Numbered from the whole stretch's first letter, positions 1 to 41,874 are shown. The stretch: DNA of 63,973 bases, filler included, from Licmophora abbreviata (GCA_900291995.1; 18 parts of 18 records of this genome joined end to end with filler, not necessarily neighbours in it); one strand, 5' to 3'. Program-made: numbers and translations. The notes: generated from the letters alone by a model not told the origin.

Positions 1-338
1 ATCTCGCAACATACTTACGGCTCGACAGTCGGTGTCTGTGAAGGCAACCAGCGCGGGAAAATGCGTTTGAATGTCGATGGAACTGCCGGCGCTGGAATAT
101 ACGCATGTATTTATATATAAATATATAATAGTTCGCAAAGTCCGAACTCCACCCCATCCACGAACGAGTGGGTCTCCTCGCGGGAATCAATCGACCACAT
201 CATCGAAAGAGACGCCTACTCAGTACGACCTAGCTAGTATGATACGACACACGATCACACAGAGACGAAAGTGAATGATATGTTGTAGAGAGAGAGAGCG
301 AGGGTAAGACACAAAGCAGTGATACTGTCCTTTGGAAT

Positions 339-1997
339 ATGCTCAAGCGAGTTACACACAAAGGCTCAAAACAAATACGAAGGTCGCAATCGCCACGAAC
401 GACGACGCCGATGGAAGAGCCATCCGACAGCGAGAGCCCGGAGCGGGGTGCCAATACGATCGACGTGGCAGGACGATCGTTACACCTTTCAGCATCATCG
501 TCATCGCCTTCATCCGTTACACCCGCGACTTCTCCTGTCAATCTTATACCGAGCGACTCGGAGCAGGGCCTTTCCGAACTCGAAGATGACGAGGACGATC
601 CCATTGTCATACTTCGTCACCTCCGCACCGCCCGCATCAGCATGAAGAAGAGTCTGAAAGGTGCCAAAAAGAGCGCCAAAAAGGCTGTGATCGGAACGCA
701 AAAGAAGCTAGCGGGGGGTACGCACAAGGTCGTCAAGAGGACGCAGCAGGCGCTGAGACAGTCGACTACTCACGTGAAGCAAAGTAGCGAGGAGCGAGAT
801 CTAGAGGCATCACCCCTCGTCCAGCATGAATCCAGTCCCTTGATACCGCAAGCTACAGTCGGCCAGCACCTATGGGGGAAAGCGCGTCAGCACCTTGATT
901 CGATCGTTCTCAGTCAGCACACTGGATCCGCCCTGCTCCTTAAGGACGGAGGTGACACTGGAAACAAGCAGCTCTTGGCGGAAGAGGCCAAGACTCGAAT
1001 TCGACGGGGCGTTGAATTCTCCCTGCTCCAGTGCGTCATTGCAATTGGAGTATACTTGCTTATCGCAGTCGGAGTCTACTCGTTTGTTTTGGAAAAGTGG
1101 TCCGTAATTGACTCTCTGTACTTTGCCGTCGTCACCTTTACGACCATCGGGTACGGCGATTTGGTACCTTCCACCGATGCATCGCGTATCTTTACGTGTG
1201 TATTTGCTCTGTTTGGAGTGGCCATTCTGGGAGTGGCGCTTGGAGTGTTAGGCAGCAACCTTATTGACGCACAAGACAAGGCAGTCGAACATGCACGGCA
1301 GTTCAGTCAATACCGTGTCATCACGTTGTTTGATTCCATTAGTCCAAAGAGCAGGCCTACGCAAACCTCGGGCTTGGTTCCTCGCGAAGTTCCATCGTCG
1401 CAGAGACGGCGTTGGTATCAGTCTGCATTCGTGGTCAAGGTTCTCCCATTGCTCACCGTGATGCTCGCGTTTTCGGTAGTACTGACGTCTACATCCAACT
1501 TTACGGCAGTGGAGACTCTCTACTTTTGCACCATTACGGCTGCGACGATTGGCTTTGGAGACTTTACGCCAGAAACAGAGCGAGACAGACTGTTGGCCGT
1601 CTTCTTCATCTTGCTGGCCGTGGGCGCCATGGGAAAGTGGATGAGTCTGGCGGCTAGTTTTATCATTGACTCACGGCAAGCGTCCTTTCAGAGAAAGTTT
1701 GAGAATCATGAGCTCACCATGGGGGAAATGGAAGCCATGGATGACGATGGAGATGGTAAGGTGACAAGAGCTGAGTTTTTGGAATTCATGCTGGTGGCCA
1801 TGAACAAGGTAGATCAGGACGTGATTGACGAACTTCGTCGACAGTTCAGTCGTCTGGACGTGGATGGGACGGGTGAATTGGAGAAAGAGGACTTGATAAT
1901 TGTGGCAAAGCGCAAGATGAAGAGCACGAAACGCAAGCTTCAACTAGCTGAGTACAAGCAGAAGCTGCTTCTGGCGTCATCCATCGACTATAGCTAG
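339..1997 (+). CDS. Two-pore K+ channel (TPK/K2P-like, 4TM/2P) with C-terminal EF-hands
   Basis: Pore motifs TTIGYGD and ATIGFGD, each flanked by TM helices; EF-hand loops DDDGDGKVTRAEF and DVDGTGELEKEDL; intronless ORF; start may be a later Met. Confidence 0.92.
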   Translation: MLKRVTHKGSKQIRRSQSPRTTTPMEEPSDSESPERGANTIDVAGRSLHLSASSSSPSSVTPATSPVNLIPSDSEQGLSELEDDEDDPIVILRHLRTARISMKKSLKGAKKSAKKAVIGTQKKLAGGTHKVVKRTQQALRQSTTHVKQSSEERDLEASPLVQHESSPLIPQATVGQHLWGKARQHLDSIVLSQHTGSALLLKDGGDTGNKQLLAEEAKTRIRRGVEFSLLQCVIAIGVYLLIAVGVYSFVLEKWSVIDSLYFAVVTFTTIGYGDLVPSTDASRIFTCVFALFGVAILGVALGVLGSNLIDAQDKAVEHARQFSQYRVITLFDSISPKSRPTQTSGLVPREVPSSQRRRWYQSAFVVKVLPLLTVMLAFSVVLTSTSNFTAVETLYFCTITAATIGFGDFTPETERDRLLAVFFILLAVGAMGKWMSLAASFIIDSRQASFQRKFENHELTMGEMEAMDDDGDGKVTRAEFLEFMLVAMNKVDQDVIDELRRQFSRLDVDGTGELEKEDLIIVAKRKMKSTKRKLQLAEYKQKLLLASSIDYS

Positions 1998-2348: not shown

Positions 2349-5300
2349 ATGTCAACGTCCAGGTCGGGAAATGTTCGGTGCTATCTCCGCATACGGCCTC
2401 GTCCAGACTGCAGAGAAGAGGAATGCCTGGATGTGAATCCGGAGAGGCGCCGAGTTACTGTCGTCGATTCACGGGGCGAAACGCATCGTTTCTCATTCGA
2501 TCGGGTATGTGTGTGTTGCGGCGCATCGGTTTTTAAAGGATTCTCGGCTGCGTCAGAGTCTTCGTTCAGCTTCTCGTCGCAATGGTAGCCTAACATCGTC
2601 ATCTCGCATATCGTTTACAGGTGTTTAGTGCAAAAGACTCTCAGAAGTCTGTATATACCAAGTCGGTGGCTCCGCTTGTTGCCGATTTCGTGTCGGGGCG
2701 AAATTGCGCAGTCTTCTCGTATGGCGAGAAGGGGAGCGGCAAGTCCCATACTATTCTTGGAAAGCATAGTTCCGGAGAGGCGAATACAAGTCACACAGAT
2801 GATAGGAGTGCGGTGAGCTCTTTGAGCGGCGGCGGTATCAGCGAGGTAGTTAAACCGAGTTCTGGATCTTCTCCGTCGTCGCCCGTTTCTCTACGTGGCA
2901 CACAGGATCCTCCAGACCAAGTGTTTGCATCAAAACGGACGTCGCACCCTTCATTTTCTAATGGGAGATATAACAAACTCGAGAAATACAGCCCGACAAT
3001 AGATGAAATTGAGGGGGAGCAAAATCAATTCTTGCTAAACGACGATTCAGGGACTGCGCTCCGTGCCGCGAAACAGATTTTTGAGCTAATGGAACGAAAG
3101 AGACAACGAGGGGGGACAGCTGAGAACCCAATTTTACGATGTTGTATTGCACAAGTGTATTGTGAGACTGTCATTGATTTGCTTGACGATCAAAGTCGAG
3201 ACATTCAGTCGATAGACGATGCACAACAAAGAGAGAGCGCGCGCGGCGGCGTCGACGTAGGAAGGTTAGAAGATACCGTCTGTGAGTGCGTAGCGGATGT
3301 ATCTCAATGTATTGAACACGGCTTGGCATGTCAAAGAGATATTTTGAGAGCCATACAGGCAGGTGCGTTGTTGAAGCATAGTCTCAGTAGTGTGTATGGC
3401 GACTTCCGTTTGCTCAACGATTTCTTTTTTCTCCGAGACAGACTCCACCATGGTGCACCTGCTCATCATTCTTAAACTGGAACGTTTTAGCAAATCACGA
3501 GGCAAGAGAACGACTTCGCATTTCTTCATTGGTGATCTGGCCGACGCGGAGCTAGTGCGAATGCCTCCCGGGAACGAGTCGACCAAAACGGCTCAAGAAG
3601 CAAAGTCGATAAAACGCGCACTTGGTTCGTTGCGGAAGTGCATGCACACTCTGGCAATGAATGGTCATTCCACTTCAGTACCGTACATGGACACGGCCCT
3701 GACAAAGCTTTTGAGAGGTGTCCTCGTTCGTGGATCGGGGTTCTCTATTTTCGTTGCAGCTCGTTCTGACGCTTCAAACGTGGAGGCAACGCTGTCGGCA
3801 TTGCGTTATGGAACTTACGCTTGTGGGAGACAGGAAACGAACAACCCAAGAACTGGTAACGATGCCAACAGTAGCCAGATGACTAGGTCAACGGCTTCAT
3901 CGGAGGGCCGAAGACGCCATGGGACGACCACCAAAAGCCGTGGACATGGCAGTGAATCGGCATCGCATGCCAAATCCATCAGTTCAGACCTCCAGCGCGA
4001 AGCGAGTAGCCTTCGGAAGAAGCTGCAAGAGCTCAAAGATCAAAACCGCGAGCTGCAACGCATCAAAAATATGCAAGCCGACGATCTCGATCAAGCACGG
4101 CGTGAGATAGAATGTAAGTTTTCACGAGAGTGCTGCACAGTATGCTCGGAAAATTGCTCACCATCATCCTTCCTCGGTGAATCTCCCTCTGAATGGGGCC
4201 AGCATTGTCCTTGGCAGGTCGCGACCACAGAACAAGTGGGACATCTACCACACTCGGTATGGATGAGAGCACGGGGACTGTCAATACTGGCAACCAAAGC
4301 CAGGCAGAGGCCCAGACTGGTGTAGACAGCAATATTCATCAATGCTTTGAGAATCTCGAGCTTGGACCGACGCTGATTCGTGTCTGCCTTCGACTGCGTC
4401 CTTTGACAAAGCTAGAAACGAGCCGACGCAGCCGCAGCTGCATTGAAGTGCATGAAGGCTCTAGAGAATTCACCGTCGATTCCCCGCTTGATGGCGAGTA
4501 TGACTTTTGTTTCGACAGGGTACGTTCCTTCCCAACCAGCAACAGGGAAAGTTCCTCGGACCATATGGAAATGGGTCTTCTCACTTTCGTTTATTCCCCA
4601 GGTCTTTGGTAGCAACATATCACAGAGCGATGTGTATCAGTCAATGGGTGCCCCCATTGTGTCGGATGTTGTGGCAGGTATAAATAGCTCTCTCGTAGTT
4701 TATGGGCTGAGTGGAACAGGGAAAAAGCACACTCTTTTGGGGACAATGCCCTCGGGGACTGACAATGATGATGCTTCCAACACGGCAAATCAGTGGTCGC
4801 ATGACAATGACGGCCCCGGAATATCCCCCAGGATGATTACGAATCTATTCAAGGAGATGGCAGACGCCCCGGAGACAATCGAGTTCACTGTCACATGCTC
4901 GTTCGTTGCTATTTTCCTTGAAAAGATGTACGATCTCATTGAACCACGACATGATCGTACACTGCTGACAACCGATCGGGAAGGTGGAGTGTATATAGAG
5001 GGCGCTAGTGAAGCGTTCTGTTTCGATTCGGACGACGCGCTATCACTTCTAAAGAGGGGATATGCCTGCCAAGCAGTAATTGGAAACAAGCTTGACATCG
5101 ACGCCAAACGATCGCACAGCATCTTTGTGATCAATGTTGAGCAGAAGAACAGGAGGACACGAGAAGTGAGAAGGTCATATCTTCAGGTCTGTCAGCTAGC
5201 AGGATTCGAAGTTGCATCTAAACCAAAGGGTTCGGGAGCGCAGGAAACGAAGATTCAACATAGGTCGTTTGCTGCCCTGGGTAGCGTTATAAAGTCGCTT

Positions 5301-7300
5301 TCGGAAGGGACCCCATGCACTGCATACAATGAATCGAAATTGACGACCATCCTGAAAGACGCAGTAGGCGGAAATTGCAAGACCACTTTTCTCGTTACTG
5401 CATCGCCCAGCTCATATCATATATCAGAAACGATCAACACGATTCGTTTGGGACAACGGATTCGAAGAGTCACGAACTACCCTCATTCCAACCGAGAGTC
5501 AACAAAAGAGAGTATCAGCAACAGATACAGGAGCTACGGACCAGAAATTCCGAGTTCTCACGGCTATTCCGACTTCTGGACGAAGAGATGACGCAAAGCA
5601 GTCGCAGTCGATTCGACGGTCAAGGGCCAAGACTCTGGGAGTCGATAAGGAATCTTGTTGGACAGGTTGAATCTGAAAAAATGGGTGGCAGTGAGTTTGA
5701 CAAGGGTTCTTTGGATTCGGCGAAACGCCGGATCCACACTGAGAGTCTGCTGGCGGATATTCAAAGCGAAGCCGTTGTGCTTCGACGGCAAAATGATCTT
5801 CTTGTGCAAGACAAACGACGCAAAGACAATGATTTGGCTGAAATCATTCGCGAAAACAAGCTCCTTGAGATGCAAAATTCACAGTTGGAGAGCAAACTTG
5901 GCTTGGCGGAGAGTCGTGCTCGCGAATCGATTGAATTCCTCCGATACATGCGTTCTCTATGCTGGAGGCTTCGAAAGGATATCTGGAAAGGAAGACCCAT
6001 CGAGTTGGCGGACATTACTTCCGGCCTCAGCGGAGCCCCGGACCTCAGTGGACTTGTCGATCTCGATCGGATGATGGTCGATGCCGGTTTCATCGTGACG
6101 ACCGATATGCCACTCGAAGCCATTGAAGACGAGTTCTTCAATTATCTTCTCGATACTGGCCTGATTATTGACGAATCTAGGGCAACAGAAGAAGAGGAGT
6201 TCGATGAGCTTTCGGGGTTGGACGATGGCATCCGTAGCGAAAGACAGAGGGATGTAGGAGAGAAGGTAAGAGAATGTGGCTTGCCTGCCATGCCACATGA
6301 TGTGTCCAGTACTCAAATGCCTGCCTCATGTTTTTCGATCTAGTCGCGATGGCAAGGCATGCGGCCTCCGCAATATCCTCGGCGTGCCATTACCAATGTA
6401 TCATCAGCTTCGACGGTAGAAGGACCACTGACGAAGGCTCCATTTCGACTGCAGGTGAATGTAGTCCCCTGGCTCCGGGCCTCCATCGGCGCAGGCGATA
6501 AAAGCACACAGCAGCGCGAGACGAATACAAGCGTGTCGCGATACACAAGCAGAGAATGGGAGCTTCAGTGCGATCTTCACAACATGTCGGACAAATGTGT
6601 GGGACTTCAGTTGATGCTGAACGAGCAGACTCAGCTCGTCGAGAGTCTCATGAACAAAAGTGGCTCACTCCAGAGGAAACGTCTGGCCAAAGACGCTGTT
6701 GATCTTCGAAAGGAGAGAGATCGTATGGTGCACAACATAAAAGCAGCGACATGGAAACTGCAGGAGGTGAGTTCAATATCGGCTAGCACCATGTGCTTTG
6801 GGTGTCCTCGTGTCGTTCCTAATCCACTCTTTCTGCCTCCAGCTTCATGTCGTAAATAAACTTTTGACCAAGCAAGTGGAGGAGTCAAAGCAGCAAGTTG
6901 CTTTTCTAGAAGAAGGATTCCAGAAGCTGCAAGACTCGCTTCGCTCATCAGTTCACGAGTCACTTGAAACTGAAACGCAGCTCCAAGATCGCGTTGCCGC
7001 CCTTCAAACCATTGCGGACTCCTTGACAGGGTTCAACGTTGAAGACAAGGGATCTGACGAAGGCAAGAAGAAGACTCGTCTCTTCCTACCGATTCGCGGA
7101 GAGACGATCGATCCATCCGCGGGTGCAAGGACCCTCATCGACCCTAGTAGCTCGGAATCTATGGCGAGAAGCTTGACGGCAAAACCAACAACGATGAAGG
7201 CTGACGGGAAAACACCCGTGTTCTTTGTTCGGTCGAATGGAAATCACACTCGTCGGTCCAAACGGACGGGAACGGCGATTGCGGGACTGAATAGAACATC
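2349..7300 (+). CDS. Kinesin (kinesin-1-like) with two tandem degenerate motor domains and coiled-coil tail; 3' truncated by spacer
   Basis: Motor 1: VRCYLRIRP, FSFDRVF, P-loop GEKGSGKSHT. Motor 2: IRVCLRLRP, FCFDRVF, GLSGTGKKHT, LKDAVGGNCKTT, ETINTIRLGQR. GT-AG introns at 2505-2620, 3363-3441, 4114-4217, 4520-4601, ~6266-6343, ~6767-6842; one probable 1-bp error near 5505. Confidence 0.8.
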
Positions 7301-13464: not shown

Positions 13465-14069
13465 NNNNNNNNNNNNNNNNNNNNNNNNNNNNNNNNNNNN
13501 NNNNNNNNTTAATTAATTAANNNNNNNNNNNNNNNNNNNNNNNNNNNNNNNNNNNNNNNNNNNNTCGTTTGTGATTGTGTTTCTTCTCTTGTTCCATGAG
13601 TACTAATGACTACTACTAATAAGCCGTCGACAACAACAGATACTATTACAGATCAGGAAAATGGCAAACGGATTGATTCGACGACTATAGAGTGCTTGTT
13701 CTTGCTGTCGTTGAATCTAAAACAGTGTCATGATCGAATAAGCGCGCCTTTTTTCGAGATGATGAGCCGCGGTATCTGATCCGGGTTCTCCACAGTACGA
13801 GCTCGTATATCTTATGTCACTCCGACACTCACTGACATTTCTATACTTATGCCCGAGTAGAGGAGAGAAGGACAGAGCCAATAAGTCGGAACGCGAGATG
13901 CAGTGTTGAATGTGTGACGATGATATTCGTAGTAGGACGACGACAAAGAGAGAGCGGCACTGTTATTTCATCACTATATCCACGACGGGACGACGACCAG
14001 CGAGGACAGCCTTCTAAACTATGATAGAACGGAGGAGGATGTTATAATAACATATACAAAGCCACAAGG

Positions 14070-16199
14070 ATGAAGGCCTCTTCCAACCACAAAACAAGAA
14101 CGAAACACGACAACAACAATTCGATTCGCTTGTGCGGTACATCCCGCGGCAGTTGCGGCTACTGCGGCGGCACACGTGGTTTCCTTGTACAATCCTCCAG
14201 CACTACACACGTACAAACAACAACGACTGCTGCAGCAAGAGTTACGGCATTCTGGCCTCGACCTTGCGTCCCGCCGACTATGAAGTCTTGCTATGTCGAG
14301 GCTGGCGTCGATCGGGCTTGCACGTCTACCGTCCCTCCAATTTCGATACGTGCTGTCCCGCACTCACGATTCGATTGCCGGTGTCGCACTTTGTACGGAC
14401 CAAGTCGCAACGCCGGAACGTGTGGAATCGAATGCACAAGGCGTGTCGGTCATTTGACACAGGGAGTAGTTCAACGGAACCAAAGACAACTACTGTGAGT
14501 AGTAGCAGTGTCGATGGAGGACTACCATCATCCGTGATGAACACTGCGAATAACAAAAAGAGAGCACGAGGAAGGGCACGTCGGAACTCACCTGAAACGA
14601 TACGAGCGCGTCATCCTCCTCTCCAGACGACATCTTCCTCCTCCTCAACAGCAGCAGCCGCAGCAGTAAGAGTGGACCCTATACTGTTGGAGGACTTGAA
14701 ACAACAAACCTGTCGTATTCTTCGACGCATGATGACAGAGGAAGAGTCGCAACGCTTGGTATCGCAACTCCTCGACAACAACAATGTCACATTCAAACCA
14801 GTGCATCCAAAAAAGAAGCAACAACAACGTTCTAGTAGTATCACACTGACTACATCGATATGTGCGAAACTTGCAGGCATCACGACGTCTCGACATGGTA
14901 CACAACAACAACGACCATTGGATCGAGGTCCCTTGGCAACGGAATTGGCGGCGGAATTGCAGCAGCATTATGCAGCATCCGGCAAGGCAGTGGAAACTGT
15001 GCGTGCGCACGTACCGAGTGGACAAGTTTTGGTGACCTATCAAACAAACAATTATCATGGTGATTGTGATACTGCTGTTGGTGTACCCATGGATACGGAT
15101 CATCATGACGACAACCACGACGACAAGATTGGACACTGGCTCGAGACGCATCACGGTATACCACGGCAGACTATGTCATCGTCGTCTCCAAGAGAGTATT
15201 CGCTTCAAGTCACGACTGTACCGGCATTGGAGAGTGCATTGCAACCAGACGTACATGAGTTGTACTTTCGCTATCAGCATAGAGTTCATGGAGATCCCGA
15301 TGTGTTGAAAAAGTCTCCTTCCGTCGACGACAACGATACTACTACTTTTACTCCAACTGCTGCTGCTGCTACAGTGTCTACTGACACAGGAGGAAGACTG
15401 GGGAGAGGCGTCGAAGAACTGGATTGCACGCGCACAAGTCATGTTGACGGAGCAGTATGGAGCCAATCGTGCTCCCGTGACGGAATTTACATCCTTTTAC
15501 AAGTTTCTCGTGGAATCGCCATTTCCGTCCGTGACGTCCAAGAAGTCTTTTTCTCACAAGCACCACCACCACCAGCAGCAGCAACAACAACACCTTCCGA
15601 CTGGAACCTACCATCAGCAGTACCGAGTAGAGGGCATGTTGATTGCGGTCGGTGTGGTGGACATTTTGCCGGGTGGTTTGTCGTCGGTCTATGCCTTTTA
15701 CGATCCCGATTTTGCTCATGACATTTGTGCCCTGGGCAAGTATACGACCTTGTATGAAATCGAAGTGGTGAAAGAGTTGGGGCTCTCGCATTACTACATG
15801 GGATATTATATTGAGAGTTGCCCCAAAATGACGTACAAGGCTGACTACCATCCCAGTCAGTTGCTGTGTCCGACGCATCATGTATGGGTCGATGCGACCG
15901 AGGCGCTATCGACGTTGCGAAAGTACAGTCCTGAGCGACATTGTTGTACTCTCTATCGACATCCTTCTAGTAACGAGGAGGAACAAGAGATATTGGAGGA
16001 GGATGTCGACAGGCAAACGAAACGAGCAAAGGAGACAGCGATACTCCAGCGCATCCCGCTCAACGTCGGTGGCAACTCGCTAGTGACTTTGAACATGCTT
16101 CACGAGCGTGGACAGGAGATTGTACGACCGTTGCTGGAGGAGTTTCTGAATCATGTCGGACCACAAGTCAGTCCGCACTGCACCATTGTTCTTGTGTAG
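14070..16199 (+). CDS. ATE1: Arginyl-tRNA--protein transferase (two apparent 1-bp frameshifts)
   Basis: N-terminal CGYC, SYG, LLCRGWRRSG, TCCP; C-terminal GTYHQQYR...IAVGVVDILPGGLSSVYAFYDPD, YYMGYYIESCPKMTYKADY. Frame changes at ~14180-14220 and ~15390. Confidence 0.9.
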
Positions 16200-16320: not shown

Positions 16321-18115
16321 CTACTCCTCCGGTACGATACGAATCAACGGTACATTTTGCTGCGCCACCACCCTGTCTCGAAGAATCTCGGCCGATTTGG
16401 TACCGTCCGCTTTGTAGATGGCAATATAAATGTCCTCAAAGACGATACCCGCAAGCCCGACGACATCGAGATCATTCGGATCATCGCCAAACGGATCTGC
16501 TCCATGTAACATGGAATGATGATACACATAAAAACGTGAGAGAGTGTGATATGCACACTACGACACGACCTCCATTCAATACAAATACAATATATACATC
16601 GACAACACACACGACGCACCGTCCAGTTCCATACTAACATACTCGAGTCCCAAAAAGCCGTAGGTAATAAAGAACATGATAATCATGAGATGTACCAGAT
16701 GGTCCATCTGATTGACCAACGCAAGGGGCAAACTAAAGACCCAAAAGAAGAGAAAGGTCCTTGTCATTTGCACCAGTGGAAAGGGAAAGGGCGTCGTAAC
16801 TAACTTTTGCAATCCATGAAAGGCCGTCATGAATTCCGACACGAAACTAAGAATCTTGAGTTCTTCATTGACATGCATGGCAAATGGCAAGGTCTGTCCA
16901 TTGCGCTGTTTCAATATCGTTTCTCTCAAGTTGTAGGCCAAGACAATGGGTGCCCGTAAGTTTTCATCTTGAACGGTTCGTACTCCATGAGCCCATTGGG
17001 AGAGCCGTTCCGTTTGGGGTGTCGCACGAGGCATTGTCGTCGTCGTTGTAGTAGTAGTATTATTTTGTTGTTGTTGTGTAGTGGCAGTTTGTCGCTTGCG
17101 TACCAATGATGGCAAGGAAGAAGTCCTTCTGGGCAAGGATGACGATGTTCCTGACGCCGCAGATATGCCAGCTTCGCTTCGTGGAGTCAAGACTTCCAGA
17201 TTCTCTTGCTCCGGAACAACATCCCATGTATTGACTTTACTCGTGCGGTACTTGACAGGAGCAAGAGAGAGAGAGAGAGAGAGAGAGAAAGTGCGATGAA
17301 TTTCTCTTCCACTGAGGCCTTTGTATACTGTCACACCCAGTCTCGTTCGTACTAGTATGCATCTCACGTACCTCAATCGCTGCCATGGTAACCCGCAACA
17401 ACAGTATCGTTCGATAGGCCACTTGCCGTCTCCACTCTTGCGCGGCTGATGCTGCATCCAAACTAGTGTTCGAAGCAGTAGTAGTAGTAGTATCCTGTTG
17501 GACGGTGAGTAGACAGGTGTACTGCACAATTTCCCTGGACGCTCGAAAGCACGTACTGAGACAATCCCTTGCCTCCATGAATCGTTGGTAGGTAATGTTG
17601 GCCCTCGTCACGACCAAGAAGGATACCATGATGGACATGAAGGTATGACCACTGGTGTTGGGAAAGGCAATGGAACCAAGAAAGGAAGACTGTTTGAAGC
17701 AGAATAAGAGCATCGTCAAGAGGACATTGACGAGGCAGTAGGGAAAGACGTGGGGCCACACGCTTCCGTACATTTGAAACAAGACGGCGAGATGAGAATT
17801 GCTGTTGTATTCCAATCGACGAATCGTATTGTTGTTGGTACGAACATAGGATGGTGATGGTGGTTCTTGTTCTTGAGGTGTGGGTGAATTGACGGCATTC
17901 TTGGGAGTGTCGTCCAGTGATGCTGGTACCACCAATAAGGGAGTTTTCTCATCGTTCGTCGTGTCCAGGACATTGACGGATAAAGACGTGGCAGCAGAAG
18001 TAGTTTTCACAGTGCTGTCTTGTCTACTGGGTGTTGGAAAAGAGCTTGGAATCGTAGCATTTGGAAAAGTAGAAGGAGGAGAGTCCGGTCCCTGTTCGAG
18101 GTCGTTCGTCGTCAT
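16321..18115 (-). CDS. Bestrophin-like anion channel (UPF0187/YneE type), copy A, 2 introns
   Basis: YGSVWPHV, SFLVVTRAN..YQRFMEAR, TTPFPFPLVQM, GFLGLEYVSMELDDPFGDDPNDLD; introns 17251-17371 and 16497-16619. Confidence 0.9.
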
Positions 18116-18724
18116 GGCGGCGGCGGGATGCAGAGGAGGACGAAGTCGAGGTTCGATTCTGGCATTCCCATGACTGCTGGAATCCAATAACGGATAGAGG
18201 AGGAGGGTCGTTCCGTCAGCTCGTTNNNNNNNNNNNNNNNNNNNNNNNNNNNNNNNNNNNNNNNNNNNNTTAATTAATTAANNNNNNNNNNNNNNNNNNN
18301 NNNNNNNNNNNNNNNNNNNNNNNNNAGGAGGGTCGTTCTGTCAGCTCGTTTTTAGTTCCATTCATGCTGGCGTTGGAGGAATAGAAAGAGAAGACCGGAC
18401 GAAAGAGATATTTGCCAATGGTGCTGTGTCCAAGCACGACAAAAAGTTTAGAGGTCTTAGTTTTCCCCTCCACCAACTCATTCCCACTTGAGAGGAATAT
18501 ATACTTAAGCTGTGTATACTATATATGATAATGTGTTCTCTCACTGTGACAAAAGTCACATCATTACACTCTTTGGCGTGATTGAAAGCTTGGATTGGAC
18601 TTGACTGTCTCTCGTCATTCTCGCGTGCTGTCGATGCTGTGCTGTGCTGTGCTGTACTGTACTGTGCTGCTGAGGATCTCTTGTCTTGTCTGTCGACTGA
18701 TGCTGACACCAAGAATAAGCAAAA

Positions 18725-20191
18725 ATGCCCCCGACACGACAAGCCGTCCGCAGCGCTCATCGACGCCTCGGCAGTGTCGATACATCTGTCGCAGTAGAGT
18801 CCTATTCGACATTCACCACTACACCAGTATCATCCTCATCCTCGCCGCCACCCCCCGACTACTCCATCAGCCATCATCGTTCCTCGTTTGACCGCGACGC
18901 GTGCGGACCGATTCGTCGCGTCTACTACGACGACACCAACCACTGGTCCGTCCTCACCCAACTCTACGGCAGTGTCTGGCCGCGCGTCTTGCCCTACTGC
19001 CTCACTACCATGCTCTTGACACTCCTCGTGTGGTACTTTAGTAGGATACACCTTGTTGTATCCATCACAGACGACCCGGTGGGACACAAGTTCATGGCCA
19101 CCATTCTCAGTTTCTTGGTAGTTACACGCGCCAACATCATGTACCAACGTTTCATGGAAGCAAGGGCCTACTTGAATGGATGTTACAAGAGTTGTCGAGA
19201 ATTGGTGCAACATGCCTGTCTATTGACACAACACCACACTGACAATCATCATCCTCATCATGCTGTCATTTGGCGTCACAATGTCGCCTATCGGACGATA
19301 CTCTTACTAAGAGTCACCATGGCGGCAGTGGAGTATGAATCGCAACACAAGAGTGCATGGGAAATACCAGAGTTGCTCGAACATGATAAGAAGGATCTTG
19401 TGCGGGATATGATCTTTATGACGACTAGAAAAGAGGATCCTCGAACTACCACTGCAACTACTACTGATACTACTACAACACCGACATCATCATCATCGTC
19501 GTCGTCGCCCTCGTCAGTGTCAACGGATCTTCCTCCATTGCCCTCATCATCACCATCATCGCCACATATCGACGCAACTACTACTCGCACTCTTCACGAA
19601 GAATCCCTCCGCGCACCTCTCATTCTAGCCTACAATCTTCGAAACGAAATCATGCAGCAACGATCCGATCGTGACGGCGGCTACTTTCGACACGTCAATG
19701 AAGAATTGAAATTGTTGGATTGCGTGGGAGATTTTTTGACTGCCTTTGAAGGATTGCAAAAGTTAGTCACGACACCCTATCCCTTCCCACTCGTGCAAAT
19801 GACACGGACCTTTCTATTTGTCTTTGTCTTTACACTGCCCTTTGTATTGTGTCATACGCCACCACGTGACAATGACCATACTACTACTGCACCATTGCTG
19901 GAAGCATTGTCCATTATGTTTCTGATTGCCTTTGGATTTCTTGGTCTGGAACTTGTATGTATGGAATTGAATGATCCCTTTGGGGATGACAGCAATGATT
20001 TGGATTGCAAGGGATACGCGCAGCTGGTCTATGAAGATATATACATTGCCATTTACAAAGCGGATGGGGAAGAAGCGGCGCATCATTTGAGACGCAAGAT
20101 TGTCAAGCGCATCCAAGACGGACCGGCGTTGGAGAACTTTCAAGAAGAAGAAGAAGAAGAAGAGTATCGTCGTCCACGGCGCGGCCACTAG
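18725..20191 (+). CDS. Bestrophin-like anion channel, copy B, intronless
   Basis: YGSVWPRV, SFLVVTRANIMYQRFMEAR, TTPYPFPLVQM, GLELVCMELNDPFGDDSNDLD. Confidence 0.92.
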   Translation: MPPTRQAVRSAHRRLGSVDTSVAVESYSTFTTTPVSSSSSPPPPDYSISHHRSSFDRDACGPIRRVYYDDTNHWSVLTQLYGSVWPRVLPYCLTTMLLTLLVWYFSRIHLVVSITDDPVGHKFMATILSFLVVTRANIMYQRFMEARAYLNGCYKSCRELVQHACLLTQHHTDNHHPHHAVIWRHNVAYRTILLLRVTMAAVEYESQHKSAWEIPELLEHDKKDLVRDMIFMTTRKEDPRTTTATTTDTTTTPTSSSSSSSPSSVSTDLPPLPSSSPSSPHIDATTTRTLHEESLRAPLILAYNLRNEIMQQRSDRDGGYFRHVNEELKLLDCVGDFLTAFEGLQKLVTTPYPFPLVQMTRTFLFVFVFTLPFVLCHTPPRDNDHTTTAPLLEALSIMFLIAFGFLGLELVCMELNDPFGDDSNDLDCKGYAQLVYEDIYIAIYKADGEEAAHHLRRKIVKRIQDGPALENFQEEEEEEEYRRPRRGH

Positions 20192-35375: not shown

Positions 35376-38300
35376 ATGCCTACACCTGCAGAACTGGCCA
35401 TGACGCAGCTAGACGCGGACGAAGCCACTCCACTCTTGTCATCATCGAGAGCGGAGGATGCAATCGTCACTTCTTCATCATCACGCCGCCAAGCTCTGTT
35501 TGACTTTCTCGAAGCCAAAACAGACGCTGGCAGACTGTACGAATCATTCACCGTCATCCTGATTCTCGTCAACATTGCAGCTTTCATTTTGGCTTCCCTC
35601 TTTGTCGAAGACTACAATGGCCATGTCACGTGGGCATCTCGTGAACATGGCATTTGTCAAAAGACATGCGATGCTCTTTGGTTTGGAAACTACAGTGACA
35701 ACGGCCTTGAATTTCTTAATTTGGGAACCACGAGTCTTTTGGAAATTCTCACGGTCTTCATCTTTACGATCGACTACCTGCTCCGCGTCTACACGGCCGA
35801 CTTGTTGGATAGCAACTACGCGGGTATAGTCGGTCGCATCCTCTTTCTCCCCACCTTTTATTCCCTCGTGGATCTCGCTTCGACAGTACCATTCTACATT
35901 GACGCTTTTGTCTTGCGCACTCGGACCTCTTCGCTTCCCAGTTTCTCCGTATGTTTCGACTCTTTAGAATGATGCGCGTTGAGGGTCGATACGATACGGC
36001 CCTTCCATGTTTGACGATATCATTGTCCGGCAGAAAGGGATTTTGGGAACGGCACTCTTTGTCGGAGTCACTACATGGATGACCGTATCCGCACTCTATT
36101 ATCTAGTGGAACGACGCAATACCAGCATGATTTATTGTGGAGCTGCTCCTGACTATTGTGGTGGAGGCGATGACATTGACGTATCTCTCTGTACGTTGGA
36201 TGCGTGGGGACTTGCCGACTGCAGTGCGGCGGGATGCCCCTCCACGGCCGACTTTCCAGAGCCGTGCTACAACCTGTTTCAGAGTATCCCCATGGCATCC
36301 TACTATGCACTCTTGAATCTCTTTGGAGAATTTCCCTTGATTGACCAACACAATGTCGGAGGCAAGATTGTGGGGACGCTCACGGCAGTTGTGGCAGTGG
36401 CGGTCTTTGCACTGCCAGCAGGCATTATTGGAAACGGCTTTGAAGATTTGATTGAAGAACGACGGGAACTAGAAGGCAACAACTCCACACAAGAAGAAGA
36501 AGAACAACAACAACAGGAGGGCGGCATGACGCCCATGCATGTGGGCGACACTGGGACGCGGCGGGGCAGGTGGTATAACTTTCTGCATCAACAAACGGCA
36601 TTTGGGAGTATAACGTTCGATCTCTTCATCAATGGNNNNNNNNNNNNNNNNNNNNNNNNNNNNNNNNNNNNNNNNNNNNTTAATTAATTAANNNNNNNNN
36701 NNNNNNNNNNNNNNNNNNNNNNNNNNNNNNNNNNNCGACATTTGGGAGTATAACGTTCGACTCTTCATCAATGGATTGATTTTGGGAACTGCGTTGACCT
36801 TCATGTTGGATACCGTGAGTCTGGTGGGTCCTGCAGTCCACGTCGTATTGGATGCCTTTGAGTTTGTCGCCGTTTGCATCTTTACGGTTGAATACGTTTC
36901 CCGCGTCTACGCCGCCACGGAGGATCCCAAATACAGTGGGCCGGGAGGCTATATACGGTACATGGGAACTTTTCTACCGATTGTCGATGCGTTGACGGTG
37001 GCTCCCTATTGGATGTACGTTCTGTGGACGGGTACAATTGTATCTAGCATGGCGGATACATCCAATGCGTTTGGAACGATTGTCAAGTGTCTGCGACTTC
37101 TTCGTCTGTTGCGTTTTGAGCGATACACGCACGCCTTTACATCATTTGACGATGTCATTCGACGCAATGTGGATGTCCTGGCTGTGACGGGTTTTACGGC
37201 ACTCTTGTTTTGGGTATTCTTCGGAGCTCTCTTGTACTTTACGGAACGGGACAACCCCGATTCGGAAATGGCTAGCAACTACAACACGGTACCCAACAGC
37301 ATGTGGATTACATTGTTGAACCTCACGGGGGAGTGTCCACTGTCGCAGTACAGCCTGTGGGGCAAGATAACGACCGGTCTTCTCGGACTTTTTGCAACGG
37401 GATTGTTTGGTATACCGATCGGTGTGTTGGGTGCTGGTTTCGAAGAGATTGTCGAAGAAGAAACAGAAGATACTCCAGACGAAGTCGACGCTGTGCAGGA
37501 AAGAACGAGAGTGTCGAGCTTCCGGGGACGTCTATGGAACAGAAAGCGTATCGGTTTGTCAATGGGCTTGGAGGGCGGCCCTCTGTCATTTTCGAATTTA
37601 CCATCTACGGTCTCATTATGCTTTCCGTAGCAATCGGTATTTGGCAGACGGTCGAAGGGCAAGAAGAGACGCTGCACGAAGTGGAGTGGATCGCTGTGGT
37701 AGTATTCACTGCTGAGTACTTGATTCGCTTCGTTGGAGCTGGTGCCGATCCTGCCTTTCGAAAGGCGAACAGCGGCTTCTCCAGTCGCTTGCGCTACGTT
37801 GCGTCTTTCTACTCCATTATTGATCTCTTGGCCATCCTTCCCTTCTACGTGGCCTACGCTTTACCAAACTCGTGGGTTAACGAGTACGATGAGTATCTCC
37901 GCATGTTGCGACTCTTGCGTCTTTTCAAATTGGACAAGTATATTCCCAGTATTTCTCTTATCGACGATGTCCTTCGGCTCAAGAAGAATGCCCTAATTGT
38001 AGCCTGTTTTGCAGCTGCAACCCTGTGGGTTCTCTTTTCAGGGCTTATATTCTTGACGGAGCACAAGGACAACGTGAATGGAATCGACAATGTACCACTA
38101 TACGGGTGCAACTCGGATTGTACAATGATGGATCGATTCCAGAATTTCTTTGACAGTTCCGTCTACACGGGCATCCATTTGACGGGAGACTTTCCCATCA
38201 CGACGTACACGTGGCCAGCTCGCTTTGTTTGCTTCTTCATGGTCATTGCAGCTGTCGGTGTCATGGCAGTTCCTTCCGGTCTGATCGCGAATGGCTTTGT

Positions 38301-39514
38301 TACCATTGTCCAGAGCAAACAAAAGGTCAAACGAGGACTCCCTCCCGGAAGTCGCGAGGGAGACGACTGGTACGAGATTTCATTTCGGGAGCTGGAAGGG
38401 CAGGACGCGCCGCTCTCTCCATTCGGACCGACGGTGGATAGGTGGCAAGAAGCTGTGAACATCTTTCTCAATGGTACCGAGGACGAACATGGCGTCACAC
38501 ATTGGACGATCTTCTCCAAGACGGGTCGAATTTTTATCTTTACCGTCATTATCTCCAATATTGTGGCTGTCCTGGCCGAAAGCATCCCGACCGTCGATCG
38601 CGCGATTGGCAACGAACGCGGAAACATCTTTGACACCTTTGAGGCATTCAGCGTGTCGGTCTTTCTCGTGGAGTACATTCTGCGTTTGTTTTGCGCTCCC
38701 AAGAACCGCCAGGCTCTCTACTCCACCTTTACGTACGCAACGACATTCTTTGGCATTGTCGACTTTCTATCGACCGCCCCGTGGTTTATCGAAAAGGGTC
38801 TAATCATGGCGGGTCTATTGGACGAGCGCGGCGATGCCATCACCATCTTTCGCATGTTCCGTATATTCCGTATCTTGCAACTGGAAGACTTTGTCGTTGC
38901 CTTTAGCAAACTGGACAATGTCTTTCGGGCCTCCAAGGATGTGTTGAAGGCAACGGGTTTGATGGCAGCCATTATCTGGATCGGGTGCGGTGCCTTGTTT
39001 TTCATCGTGGAACAAGACAATCCCAACTGGCGCTCGTGTGACTTGTCGGTTCCATTGTATTCGGACGACGATGTGCCGGGATGCTACGAGTTTACCAGTA
39101 CCGCTGCTTGCAACGATGTCTATCCCGGACTGTGCGAACAGAGGGCGTTCACGAGTATGCCGAATGCATTGTGTAAGTGGAACATGTTGTTGTTGTTGTT
39201 GTTGTCCTGTAGTGATATGGATGGAAGCAATTTCGGCTTGTTTTGAAATTGTATTCTCACAGTATGATTCGTCGTTTTGTATATATTATGATTCTCCTGC
39301 TATAGACTACGTGGCCGTCTTTCTCGGTGGTGAATGGGGCCTTGTCGATTTCACATGGCCTGGACGGATGGTATGCTTGTTCTTGTGCGTGGCGGGCATT
39401 GCCATTTACGCCATTCCAATTGGTACACTCTTTGATAGCTTCGGAGCCGTCTTGGGAATGGGAGATGACGAAGAAGAAGAAGAAGAGACTACGAAGGTTG
39501 AAAGTAAGCAATAA
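35376..39514 (+). CDS. Four-repeat (4x6TM) voltage-gated-like cation channel with Kv-like repeats and non-GYG acidic filters
   Basis: Four S1-S6 units. S4: RMFRLFRMMR, RLLRLLRFER, RMLRLLRLFK, RMFRIFRILQ. Pore loops: LNLFGEFP, LNLTGECP, IHLTGDFP, VFLGGEWG. Intron 39173-39305; 1-bp shifts at ~35919, ~36004, ~37501; overlapping flanks bridge spacer 36636-36735. Confidence 0.82.
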
Positions 39515-39963
39515 TAAGGTGGGAGGGTACTATAGTCTTGTTTGTCAGGGTGGACGGGGTGGGATCCATCATCATGTGGTGATGTATGTAGTAAGTAGTA
39601 ATGACGTGCCCTCCCCTCCCCCTTCCTGTAAAGCTATTGAAACTAGCATCAGTAAAGGTTTGTAGGATCCAATAGAATCGGAGCGCAAAGTATGAAAGTG
39701 TTGCGACGAGACGACAAAGAACGAAACTAACTAGGAGCAGTTGTTTAGAATCGGTGTTTCCCAGGAACACTCGTGTGACAAACACACGCGAGCTCTCTGC
39801 GTTTCTGCGACCGCTTGAAACACACGGTGGCGTCAAGACATCATCGCATCGCAGCACCACACCATCCCAGAACGCCTATACAAACACACGGAGAGGCAAC
39901 GATGAAACCTTGCAGAGCGGCCGCCACCACCACATAGGAGACGCACCACCAGCCCCTACCAGG

Positions 39964-41874
39964 ATGACTCTCAATGCCCCCACTCTGGCCTCGTCTTCTT
40001 CTTCTTCTTCTTCTTCCGTCGCAGTGCTGTACATTGCCTGGCGCGTCGCCTGGTCCAATCGAATGCCATTCTTGGACTGCGACGAAGTGTACAATTACTG
40101 GGAGCCGCTGCACTACCTTCATTACTCGAGTGGCATGCAAACGTGGGAGTATGCTCCCGACTTTGCCCTTCGAACCTACGCTTACCTGCTCCCAATGAGG
40201 ATACTGTCGGGACTCTACGAGTGGCTTGTTGCAACACTGCTATCATCATTTTCAAAGGGCAACCACAGCAGCTGCACACTCCTATTGCGACTCCTATATA
40301 CCTCACTGATGCCCCTCACGACGACCGCAGAAGCAGCTACTACTTCAATCCTACACGACGACAACACTCACAAGCTCCTTGTCTTTGGAATGCTCCGAGG
40401 GACACTTGCGGCGCTCTGCGCCATTTCCGAATTGCGTTTCATCCGAGCCATTGATCGTACCACCACCACCAATAACAAGAACGGTAACACATCAACAACA
40501 ACTACTCCTAGTGCCATGTCTGTGGCACTGCACTTGGTCTTTTTGACGTGCACTGGCATGACGCATGCGGCAGGTGCCTACTTGCCCAGCAGCTCGGTCA
40601 TGATGGTCTACATGCTCTGCGTCGATGCCTATCTGAACACTGCCGTGTGGAGATTTGTCCTACTGGCGATTCTTGCAACCTTGGCAATTGGATGGCCCTT
40701 TGGAGTGATTGTCTTTGTACCCATGGGACTTCATATTGTGTACTTGGTGTCGTGTGCCAAGAATCCATACTTGCCTCTGTGGAAGCTGTTGAGTGGTATA
40801 CTGCTAATGACGGTCGCTGTGCAGAGCATGGTCATGTGTGTGGATCGTCATTACTACAATGACGACACTTCCAATCCTCCTCCTGCTCCGCCGAGATGGC
40901 TCTCTCCCACGCTCCATATCTTTCTCTACAATGCCAAGAGCGGGGGAGACGAACTCTATGGGGTCGAACCACTCTCCTATTACATCAAGAACATTCTACT
41001 CAATTTCAATTACCTTGGCATCATTGGAATTGGACTCGGATTGCCCGTGGCCTTCGTGTTGCGGCTCTTGCCCACAAAGAATGGGGCACCCTACACTACA
41101 CACTACCTCGTGAGCATTGTCGCACCGCTCTACCTGTGGTGGAGCGTGGTGGGACCCAGACCTCACAAGGAAGAGCGATTCCTCTTTCCCATTTATCCTG
41201 CCATTCTGACGAGTGCAACATTTACTGTGCGGGCATTGTGGGAAATGATAATGACCGTGGCGATGGGAGGAACGGCGACTGTGACGACGCGTCGTGCAAA
41301 CAACAGATATGCTTTGCTTCGCAAGTACGGATGGATACTCTTGTTGCTGCCATCGTGTGGTATATCCCTACTTCGATCCATGGCATTGTCCAAGTATTAT
41401 ACCGCTCCGTTGCTCGTGTATGCCCAATTGCCACCACGGACGACAGAGTTGATGGAGAAGACCACCACCCAAACCACACTGCTGGTCTGTACGTGCGGTG
41501 AATGGTATCGATTCCCATCGAGTTATGCGCTTCCGGACAACAAGTACGAACTTGGCTTTCTCCCATCGAGCTTTCGAGGACAATTGCCCAAGTCGTTTGG
41601 ACGACCCGGCACCTTCAACGATGAGAATCGCGAAGAAGTTGATCGTTACGTGAACTACAGCGACTGCGACTATATGGTGCGACTGGACAGTGCCGAGGAT
41701 TGTGCGGCGCCCTTGTCGGACTGGAAGGTACTAGCACAAGAGGCCTTTTTGGATGCATCGCGCACAACGTCGACCCTGCATCGCATCCTGTATGTGCCGT
41801 ATTTTCACGAGCGAGCGGTAGAACGAGGGGATGTAACGTACGACTCGTACGTTCTTCTGGAACGTAAGCGATAG
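39964..41874 (+). CDS. ALG9: Dol-P-Man alpha-1,2-mannosyltransferase (GT22)
   Basis: DCDEVYNYWEPLH, QTWEYAPDFALR, LPSS, PHKEERFLFPIYP, EWYRFPSSY, FRGQLP, FNDEN.EE.DRY. Confidence 0.92.
   Translation: MTLNAPTLASSSSSSSSSVAVLYIAWRVAWSNRMPFLDCDEVYNYWEPLHYLHYSSGMQTWEYAPDFALRTYAYLLPMRILSGLYEWLVATLLSSFSKGNHSSCTLLLRLLYTSLMPLTTTAEAATTSILHDDNTHKLLVFGMLRGTLAALCAISELRFIRAIDRTTTTNNKNGNTSTTTTPSAMSVALHLVFLTCTGMTHAAGAYLPSSSVMMVYMLCVDAYLNTAVWRFVLLAILATLAIGWPFGVIVFVPMGLHIVYLVSCAKNPYLPLWKLLSGILLMTVAVQSMVMCVDRHYYNDDTSNPPPAPPRWLSPTLHIFLYNAKSGGDELYGVEPLSYYIKNILLNFNYLGIIGIGLGLPVAFVLRLLPTKNGAPYTTHYLVSIVAPLYLWWSVVGPRPHKEERFLFPIYPAILTSATFTVRALWEMIMTVAMGGTATVTTRRANNRYALLRKYGWILLLLPSCGISLLRSMALSKYYTAPLLVYAQLPPRTTELMEKTTTQTTLLVCTCGEWYRFPSSYALPDNKYELGFLPSSFRGQLPKSFGRPGTFNDENREEVDRYVNYSDCDYMVRLDSAEDCAAPLSDWKVLAQEAFLDASRTTSTLHRILYVPYFHERAVERGDVTYDSYVLLERKR

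Follow-up and report, generated by a model that had tools for sequence, protein, structure and literature searches.

The window analyzed here is a stretch of 63,973 nucleotides (nt), filler included, from Licmophora abbreviata (GCA_900291995.1), in which 18 short contigs are chained via 17 identical TTAATTAATTAA linkers. A single gene on its plus strand, at positions 35376–39514, encodes a protein of ~1288 amino acids (aa) with four complete S1–S6 repeats, and this channel gene and its relatives are the subject of the present analysis. The repeats are akin to voltage-gated potassium (Kv) channels, each filter is two residues shorter than the GYG-type potassium filter, and the four filters together carry a conserved set of acidic residues, the E/E/D/E ring.

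Gene structure and draft faults

Five stop-to-stop frames overlap across the gene, each translating into pieces of S1–S6 channel units, and the reading is interrupted by two missing bases, two surplus bases, one false gap, and one 133-nt intron (Table 1). The best homologue, P0001 (1297 aa), matches the whole gene colinearly in tblastn, with three frame changes and one skipped segment (35415–35918 in frame 3, 35906–36004 in frame 2, 36004–36633 in frame 1, 36764–37441 in frame 2, 37501–39171 in frame 1, and 39308–39469 in frame 2); it runs unbroken across the gap and is 73% identical to the window protein over repeats III–IV. Identity to homologues is 62% to 91% in each segment of the gene, reaching 91% in the 33 codons between breaks 1 and 2, and no in-frame stop remains once the frame shifts are allowed. 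The spliced reading across the intron agrees with the SLYYTAVFLGGEWG of the homologues.

Independent contigs from four public runs were aligned to 36737–39514, a region that they cover sparsely and that lies downstream of breaks 1 and 2. A 152-nt contig from run X4 equals the window sequence minus the two letters of break 3 and is otherwise identical, so that repeat II leads into repeat III without a change of frame. From run X1, a 371-nt contig that reaches 295 nt upstream of the gap carries an extra T behind 36760, as in the pre-gap spelling, and a DNA contig of the same run crosses the intron without a joint. An earlier reading of this DNA from its letters alone (hereafter, the sequence-only reading) had proposed three 1-bp shifts, one intron, and one overlapping gap; the three breaks, the intron, and the gap hold, and the third break proved to be two surplus letters rather than a 1-bp shift. 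Because the window is chained from small contigs and three of its other genes, encoding a kinesin, an arginyl-tRNA-protein transferase (ATE1), and a bestrophin-like protein, are likewise split across overlapping frames, the breaks look like general draft errors.

Table 1. Features of the channel gene and positions of other genes in the window
Feature	Position	Strand	Basis or remark
Whole channel gene	35376..39514	+	ATG at 35376 straight after an in-frame TGA; stop TAA at 39512-39514; 1288 aa with X at breaks
N-terminal E-A-T-P-L-L, acidic di-leucine-type motif	35421..35438	+	Family conservation
Repeat I, pre-S1 motif through S6 end	35484..36459	+	Repeat-I hidden Markov model (HMM), 516 bits; tblastn
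Frame break 1, loss of one base near 35919 (..ttg cgc [c]ac tcg..)	35916..35921	+	tblastn frame 3 to 2
S4 of repeat I	35936..35992	+	Read in the intermediate frame
Frame break 2, loss of one base near 36003 (..gcc ctt [n]cc atg..)	36000..36007	+	tblastn frame 2 to 1
Filter Glu of repeat I (LFGEFP)	36328..36330	+	Sequence; G-E here in 94/94 family members
Repeat II, across the false gap	36562..37459	+	Pfam, PDB phmmer, HMM segments
False assembly gap (N run, TTAATTAATTAA linker, N run)	36636..36735	.	~40 nt duplicated on both flanks
S4 of repeat II	37079..37132	+	
Filter Glu of repeat II (LTGECP)	37331..37333	+	
Frame break 3, two extra letters within a gagag run, II–III linker	37507..37508	+	Absent from the run X4 contig
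Repeat III	37537..38316	+	Pfam, PDB phmmer, AlphaFold2 model
S4 of repeat III	37891..37944	+	
Filter Asp of repeat III (LTGDFP)	38188..38190	+	
Repeat IV, split by the intron	38443..39460	+	tblastn, HMM segments
S4 of repeat IV	38839..38892	+	
Intron, 133 nt, GT..AG, phase 1	39173..39305	+	Spliced reading ..NAL-Y-YVAVFLGGEWG
Filter Glu of repeat IV (LGGEWG)	39332..39334	+	
Two-pore-domain K+ channel with EF-hands	279..1997	+	
Kinesin motor, first of two (frame-split)	2594..4325	+	
Kinesin motor, second of two	4416..5591	+	
Arginyl-tRNA-protein transferase (frame-split)	14051..16199	+	
Bestrophin-like (frame-split)	16576..18277	-	
Bestrophin-like	18719..20191	+	
ALG9-like mannosyltransferase	39676..41874	+	

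Family range, filter, and voltage sensors

The gene belongs to a four-repeat family. Among 121 longer homologues (120 best listed), most have ~1230–1300 aa and Ion_trans as their only domain, and several are MMETSP transcripts marked complete. Those listed come from Seminavis robusta, Nitzschia, Pseudo-nitzschia, Cylindrotheca, Mayamaea, Epithemia, Entomoneis, and Grammatophora, genera that we in part presume to be pennate diatoms, as well as from the centric diatoms Cyclotella cryptica and Skeletonema, the brown alga Discosporangium, and the dinoflagellate Symbiodinium. Automatic naming has labeled the Seminavis robusta homologue "gated channel subfamily KQT member 1" and the Symbiodinium homologue "Shal". 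An Atlas cluster is commonest in Haptophyta, and haptophytes probably carry the family as well. The stramenopile channel class of the sequence-only reading was thus drawn too narrowly, given the Symbiodinium proteins among the matches and the prevalence of the Atlas cluster in Haptophyta.

An exhaustive HMMER search with repeat III returned 3090 representatives at E ≤ 1e-3 and 113 at E ≤ 1e-30, and nearly all of the 138 new proteins in its top 150 are multi-repeat proteins with the same loops. A near-length search gave 119 proteins of 301–961 aa, mostly starting within a repeat (at the filter or S6 of repeat II, e.g., MFGIPIGVLG and MSGEAPLCQY), and 15 of the 119, with a clean III–IV architecture, start at the end of S6 of repeat II or in the II–III linker. 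Because their start points fall at such places, the shorter database proteins are regarded as fragments. P0178 (334 aa), considered as a true single-repeat relative, was rejected, as its C-terminus is the pre-S1 motif of the next repeat; no genuine one- or two-repeat form with an acidic filter was seen among the 119 shorter proteins and P0178. The colinear homologue, the relatives of ~1230–1300 aa with their complete transcripts, and the fragmentary nature of the shorter forms all bear out the claim of one protein with four S1–S6 units. Some family members depart from the common layout: in P0098 (1253 aa), the order of two loops is swapped, with GGEW in repeat three and TGDYP in repeat four; P0112 (1153 aa) carries EF-hand domains; and in the Symbiodinium gene models P0115 and P0120 the channel is fused to a methyltransferase-type domain.

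The pore loops of repeats I to IV read LFGEFP, LTGECP, LTGDFP, and LGGEWG, with GYG in none of them, and pore entry reads FQSIP, YNTVP, and FTSMP. In an L-INS-i alignment of 80 family repeats with 22 GYG relatives, all 80 are two residues shorter than TLTTVGYGD (e.g., NLT--GECPL), the length difference being firm and the placement of the gap ambiguous. The consensus is [FTSG]-G-[ED]-x-[PG]; repeats I–III follow [FTS]-G-[ED]-x-P, and repeat IV has G-G-E-W-G. Across 94 proteins (the window protein and 93 homologues of 1150–1460 aa from the 120 best listed), the ring reads EEDE in 83 and EEDD in 6, with 3 truncated at repeat IV and 2 odd or misaligned. One relative, P0132 (1313 aa), keeps the four repeats and the sensors and has no acidic ring; it may represent a paralogue whose permeation is altered or absent.

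In sequence, the filter appears to resemble TIGETP of cyclic nucleotide-gated (CNG) channels more than the P-loop of Cav. Papers are cited here and below for the excerpts of their text that bear on these points. The CNG filter, TIGETPPP, owes Ca2+ block to its Glu, block being enhanced by E-to-D and diminished by E-to-N exchange, and NaK carrying a TVGETPPP filter is non-selective, with a Ki(Ca) of 59 µM (PMC4555469); TIGE of CNG channels is described as the one clade-wide exception to TVGY/FG (PMC7576140). The sequence-only reading had given the four loops exactly as they stand, had noted the absence of TxGYG, and had described an E/E/D/E ring, which is conserved as EEDE or EEDD in 89 of the 94; the acidic ring of its filter stands, and the Cav-style likeness it drew gives way to a filter equal to GYG minus two residues and nearer to CNG TIGETPPP.

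The voltage sensors are preserved in all four repeats. S2 reads FTIDYLLR, FTVEYVSR, FTAEYLIR, and FLVEYILR in repeats I–IV, and the Phe, acid, and Arg of F-x-x-[ED]-Y-x-x-R are kept in 82–94 of the 94; S3 reads IDLLAILPFY, its Asp being kept in 93–94. S4 positions with Arg or Lys, kept in 79–94 of the 94, number four to five in repeat I, five each in II and III, and three in IV. S6 reads ALPAGIIGNGF, GIPIGVLGAGF, AVPSGLIANGF, and AIPIGTLFDSF, of which P-A-G, P-I-G, and P-S-G of repeats I–III match S6 of KCNQ1 and bacterial Kv channels almost residue by residue, repeat IV having P-I-G. This P-x-G stretch may be the gating hinge typical of Kv channels. A KCNQ-like pre-S1 motif, x-Y-x-F-L-E/N.., aligns with KCNQ1 in PDB alignments. 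All the scaffold motifs noted earlier in S2, S3, pore entry, and S6 are thus present. Cys-rich S5-P loops occur in repeats I (~36120–36290, 6 Cys), III (~38100–38130, 2 Cys), and IV (~39030–39150, 4 Cys), with none in repeat II, and C-x-x-x-C lies in the S1–S2 loop of repeat I; the asymmetry of the outer-loop Cys is reminiscent of four-domain channel turrets.

The full-length relative P0047 (1169 aa), which is devoid of S1 and part of S2 of repeat I and was short enough to fold, was modeled with AlphaFold2 from a 62-sequence alignment, with a predicted local distance difference test (pLDDT) score of 85.1 and a predicted template modeling (pTM) score of 0.86. Its best whole-chain PDB matches are Cav1.2, Nav1.7, Cav2.x, and NavPaS, at TM scores of 0.54–0.61 and 12% to 15% identity. 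In the model, each repeat has one pore helix, then 9–11 non-helical residues, then S6, and a second pore helix is absent. Cav and Nav P-loops contain such a second (P2) helix, and the predicted pore layout is that of potassium or CNG channels rather than of Cav/Nav. The AlphaFold modeling put forward with the sequence-only reading, made on this relative, returned a four-repeat fold with a single pore helix per repeat.

Kv kinship and repeat history

Pfam Ion_trans (PF00520; cut-off, 25 bits) scores 61.7 bits on repeat II and 113.2 bits on repeats III and IV; the halves of repeat I score 23.6 and 18.3 bits, below the cut-off, because the frame breaks split this repeat. The last piece (69 aa, 39305–39514), with the filter and S6 of repeat IV, matched no Pfam family. 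The proposed HMMER comparison with Ion_trans accordingly covers pieces of repeats I–III and the start of IV.

Cav, Nav, NALCN, TPC, CatSper, and BacNav chains are all plentiful in the PDB. With repeat III as the phmmer query, all 51 PDB matches at E ≤ 1e-3 are Kv channels, the best being KCNQ1 (5e-11), and with repeat II, the best 60 of 71 matches are all Kv. Whole P0001 at E ≤ 10 matches 71 distinct PDB sequences, the best 60 of them all Kv (KCNQ1, 74 bits); no Cav, Nav, or NALCN chain is among the matches listed, and at most 11 of the 71 could be one. Structure comparison gave the same ranking. The AlphaFold2 model of repeat III of the window (pLDDT 89.0) has Kv channels as its best 50 Foldseek matches (16% to 23% identity), and VIA-align, which is independent of Foldseek and covers 48,161 chains, returned Kv4, Kv1, Kv2, Kv3, and KCNQ with Z scores of 13–17.4 and 19% to 26% identity, and CatSper, NavAb, NavEh, Nav1.5, Cav1.2, TPC3, and Cav2.2 with Z scores of 10–14 and 12% to 17% identity. 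On all three counts, the matches listed in the PDB, the best 50 of Foldseek, and the lead of Kv in VIA-align, the Kv lineage claimed earlier for the repeats is upheld.

GYG carriers were few among the 138 new proteins of the repeat III search: P0224, P0226, P0235, and P0253 only. Relatives of P0235 are bacterial proteins of ~270 aa named "voltage-gated potassium channel / ion transporter", and these bacterial GYG channels match the family repeat-II HMM over the full length of the HMM, with 132–161 bits. P0235 itself (1493 aa, four TIGYG repeats) was considered as an ancestor and rejected, as its near-copy repeats sit with bacterial Kv channels as a separate, recent concatenation. P0226 (1748 aa) has four diverged Shaker-like repeats with GYG in each. 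In P0235 and P0226, Kv units appear to have been joined independently on further occasions.

Profile–profile scores are highest for repeats I–II (443) and III–IV (424), the remaining pairs scoring 342–396. A first tree was built from 80 repeats of 20 family proteins, chosen from the 27 of 36 examined that have exactly four HMM segments, together with 22 GYG rows; all GYG rows fell on one side of a branch (SH-like approximate likelihood-ratio test [SH-aLRT], 99), and repeats III and IV each formed a clade. In a second tree, built with a careful search and with the 8 rows of P0127 and P0135 left out, the support values were 100/100 for the GYG branch, 100/97 for repeat I, 90/89 for II, 100/97 for III, 100/99 for IV, and 99/93 for III and IV together. 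The per-repeat phylogeny suggested earlier was run with GYG Kv rows as its outside reference, from which the family split off as one branch. As each repeat is its own clade across the family, the four-repeat order was apparently fixed before the family radiated, deep branches P0237, P0242, P0249, and P0258 included. The scores and trees point to a repeat kinship of (I,II),(III,IV), and because of this duplication history the four-repeat form would have arisen separately from Cav/Nav. In CNGK channels, repeats pair I with III and II with IV (PMC7576140).

Interpretation and comparison with known systems

We put at roughly 0.7 the probability of a joint explanation in which the locus holds a single intact gene mis-rendered by the draft assembly, the nearest outside relatives of the repeats are bacterial six-transmembrane-segment (6TM) GYG Kv channels and KCNQ, and the product is an independently evolved, Kv-derived, voltage-gated, single-chain pseudo-tetrameric cation channel with 24 transmembrane segments (24-TM) that, by analogy with CNG channels, is probably non-selective and Ca2+-permeable. 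The independently evolved pseudo-tetramer from the Kv lineage, as put forward by the sequence-only reading, is supported by the Kv similarity, the (I,II),(III,IV) kinship, and the single pore helix. On the tests made, the channel would work like a four-domain cation channel and appears to belong to neither Cav/Nav nor Kv proper.

In this explanation, the four repeats descend from a Kv-type 6TM potassium channel, and each has lost two residues of TTVGYGD, which would set a single carboxylate from every repeat (E/E/D/E) at the entrance of a short, CNG-like filter. Deletion of YG from Shaker is said, in a classic experiment, to yield a non-selective channel. Whereas gene structure, the four-repeat family, Kv kinship, filter shortening, and the conserved ring and sensor residues are shown by the data above, we infer the following for ion selectivity, gating polarity, location, and physiological role. 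Membrane voltage would move four non-identical sensors and so open the S6 gate, the shortened acidic filter would pass Na+, K+, and Ca2+, and Ca2+ would bind the ring and partly block it. The net effect would be a voltage-gated, non-selective, Ca2+-permeable conductance, not a K+ channel. A more sweeping view, to which we give somewhat less than even odds, is that the family constitutes an unrecognized third kind of 24-TM voltage-gated channel in diatoms, pennates included, brown algae, dinoflagellates, and probably haptophytes, in which all four K+ filters were made CNG-like and acidic before the family radiated and which provides a voltage-gated, Ca2+-permeable, possibly vacuolar conductance.

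Several points weigh against the Kv-derived, non-selective reading. The ring is not universal, being lost in P0132 (FGAFP / AHQDP / TGNYP / VGAWN). In the first tree, repeats I and II formed clades except for long-branched strays from P0127 and P0135, and in the second, the branch uniting I and II is weak (92/50). The trees hold the family and GYG rows only, with Cav, Nav, NALCN, TPC, CatSper, EukCat, and BacNav outside them, and it is the ranking by similarity, the kinship of the repeats (those of Cav/Nav being taken to pair I with III and II with IV), and the anatomy of the pore loops that would place the family outside Cav/Nav. In look, GGEWG of repeat IV is nearer the "-E-W-" loop of Cav and BacNav. 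CNG and NaK2CNG filters are homotetrameric and read ETPPP, as against E-F/C/Y-P here, and selectivity is argued by analogy. Lastly, Fux et al. 2018 (PMC6259924), in the excerpt cited, list "EEDE" among non-animal 4×6TM rings with reference to Verret et al. 2010, and a family member may already be tabulated there as Cav-like.

The foremost alternative keeps the scaffold and changes the permeation: the channel would be Ca2+-selective in the manner of Cav, or otherwise selective (e.g., for Na+ or H+). Ca2+ selectivity in Cav channels is characteristically associated with four carboxylates, and an asymmetric, strictly conserved E/E/D/E ring would suggest tuned selectivity, to which may be added that E-to-D exchange strengthens Ca2+ binding in CNG channels (PMC4555469). 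The short filter and the one pore helix are, by contrast, the geometry of CNG and NaK, where monovalent conduction is non-selective, with Ca2+ block and slow Ca2+ permeation (PMC4555469), and we regard a selective channel as unlikely.

That the copy in the source organism is a pseudogene, its three frame breaks being real and the family functional elsewhere, is less probable still. Three frame-disrupting indels in 3.9 kb speak for a recently inactivated copy; the breaks near 35919 and 36003 are placed from the frames of homologues, and no RNA run is among the public runs found to hold the gene (which carry 0.07–0.21 of the sampled words). Against this, an independent contig that otherwise matches exactly lacks one of the three breaks, frame splits affect at least three further genes of the window, itself chained from 18 small contigs, and the gene, once shifted, is free of in-frame stops and keeps 62% to 91% identity in every segment; the likelihood of inactivation seems to us very small.

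Least credible of all is a divergent canonical Cav/Nav/NALCN member, with E/E/D/E as an ordinary high-field-strength site and the Kv likeness due to convergence or retained ancestry: the single chain of four 6TM repeats, each with one acidic residue, the whole-chain PDB matches of P0047 to Cav1.2 and Nav1.7 (TM scores of 0.54–0.61), the long Cys-rich S5-P loops of repeats I, III, and IV, such as Fux et al. 2018 describe for 4×6TM channels, GGEWG in repeat IV, and the listing of "EEDE" among non-animal 4×6TM filters (PMC6259924) speak for it, but it is at odds with the absence of Cav/Nav/NALCN from the PDB phmmer matches listed (11 of 71 others at most, at E ≤ 10), the identity of 12% to 17% to Cav/Nav versus 19% to 26% to Kv, the modeled single pore helix and a filter equal to GYG minus two residues, the alignment of the S6 P-x-G stretch and the pre-S1 motif with KCNQ1, the repeat kinship, precomputed Pfam annotation with Ion_trans only in nearly all matches and Cav/Nav accessory domains absent, and the presence of the family in Nitzschia, Pseudo-nitzschia, Seminavis, and others, when surveys, in the excerpts cited, report no Cav/Nav in pennates (PMC6509283, PMC11085791).

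For the Kv-derived channel, location may be hinted at by the N-terminus. Of 92 members that start with Met, 62 have E-x-[TS]-P-L-[LIVF] or a near variant among their first 60 residues, and several others have EPLL. As excerpted from PMC11085791, EGTPLL works as a di-leucine signal for the vacuole in Phaeodactylum, the diatom vacuolar channel TPCL carries a conserved EASPLL, and delivery of Arabidopsis TPC1 to the tonoplast depends on an N-terminal di-leucine motif. Vacuolar or endolysosomal sorting via ExTPLL, proposed by analogy with TPC1 of plants and TPCL of diatoms, is tentative, and we hold it to be more doubtful than sound. Weighing against it is the brevity of the motif, and signals of this type also mediate endocytosis from the plasma membrane, where the channel may instead reside.

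Other genes of the window include a second channel gene, with two Ion_trans_2 pore domains and EF-hands (Pfam, 6.5e-32), that is, a two-pore-domain K+ channel with Ca2+-binding hands. There are two divergently oriented bestrophin-like genes (Bestrophin_2) and two kinesin motor genes in tandem, and the arginyl-tRNA-protein transferase gene has ATE_N and ATE_C in overlapping frames. Directly downstream of the channel gene lies an intact 732-codon open reading frame for an ALG9-like mannosyltransferase (Glyco_transf_22, 2.2e-61).

In the literature searched, with survey ID tables and supplements outside the search, no account of a Kv-like channel combining four repeats with an acidic filter was found, in line with the earlier suggestion of a possibly undescribed class, and the family seems to have escaped surveys of calcium and potassium channels in diatoms. 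According to the excerpts cited, Helliwell et al. 2019 (PMC6509283) report 4D-Cav/Nav in 6 of 24 diatoms, all centric; a 2024 survey (PMC11085791) finds Cav absent from pennates except Seminavis and raises an alternative as possible; a brown-algal genomics preprint describes pennates as devoid of Nav/Cav; and the text of Pozdnyakov et al. 2018 (PMC5824947), figures and tables aside, makes no mention of diatoms.

The usual view is that voltage-gated channels with four domains were invented once, as Cav/Nav/NALCN, CNGK being set aside as a special, K+-selective case. If confirmed, the present channel would mean that the four-domain architecture was built again from Kv units and that a K+ pore became an acidic cation pore through CNG-type shortening by two residues, once in each of four repeats. 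The family is found in pennates, said to be without four-domain Cav/Nav (PMC6509283, PMC11085791), yet is uncounted there, and is a candidate replacement; if true, this could bear on algal action potentials and on Ca2+ waves arising without inositol trisphosphate (IP3) receptors.

Compared with Cav/Nav/NALCN, the channel shares a 24-TM pseudo-tetramer, asymmetric repeats, one acidic filter residue per repeat, and the overall fold (TM score ~0.6), whereas it has no second pore helix (in the model), no accessory domains, only 12% to 17% identity, and the (I,II),(III,IV) kinship; furthermore, the family occurs in pennate diatoms, from which Cav/Nav are reported missing. With plant TPC1 (the slow vacuolar [SV] channel) and diatom TPCL it may be a functional analogue, as a voltage-dependent, non-selective, Ca2+-permeable vacuolar channel with an N-terminal di-leucine motif (PMC11085791), but TPCs have two repeats, dimerize, and have VNN/VND filters, as against four repeats here, and identity to TPC3 is 12%. 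EukCatA, single-domain Na+/Ca2+ channels of diatoms, are regarded as the pennate alternative to Cav/Nav for excitability (PMC6509283); EukCats are BacNav-like single domains, and the EukCat-type NavEh aligns with the repeat III model at a Z score of 12.4 and 16% identity.

With CNG channels and NaK2CNG chimeras, the channel would share a potassium-channel-type pore whose filter is shortened to G-E-x-P, the CNG sequence being taken from the paper rather than aligned here, and a CNG-type ring of four carboxylates binds and passes Ca2+ while blocking monovalent current (PMC4555469). It differs from them in having no cyclic-nucleotide-binding domain (CNBD) in the Pfam annotation of the window pieces and homologues, a fully charged S4 in all repeats, four different repeats, and an aromatic or small residue after E/D where CNG has Thr, with GEWG in repeat IV. 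CNGK channels of animal sperm and choanoflagellates also have four potassium-channel-type repeats fused in one chain, as a separate case, but keep the K+ filter and a CNBD in each repeat (PMC7576140). Tandem Kv-like channels of SAR (stramenopile, alveolate, and rhizarian) protists, described in a 2020 paper, likewise concatenate Kv-like repeats but have two repeats with TVGYG-type filters; in the excerpt cited, Pozdnyakov et al. identified no tandem channels in diatoms or phaeophytes.

Kv channels themselves (KCNQ/Kv7, Kv4, Kv2, Kv1, and bacterial 6TM) share S2 F..EY..R, S3 D..P, S4 with Arg at every third residue, and one pore helix, and the S6 stretch P-x-G-I-[IL]-G-x-G-F of bacterial GYG Kv channels is nearly identical in the window channel. 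Whereas Kv channels are homotetramers of one-6TM chains, the window channel joins four repeats in one chain, its filter is two residues short of GYG and carries E/D, and its outer loops in repeats I, III, and IV are long and Cys-rich. T1 and the KCNQ C-terminal domain are absent from the named family members, for which precomputed Pfam annotation gives PF00520 only, and the window protein ends ~17 residues past S6 of repeat IV in an acidic tail, where KCNQ would have its calmodulin-binding and assembly domain.

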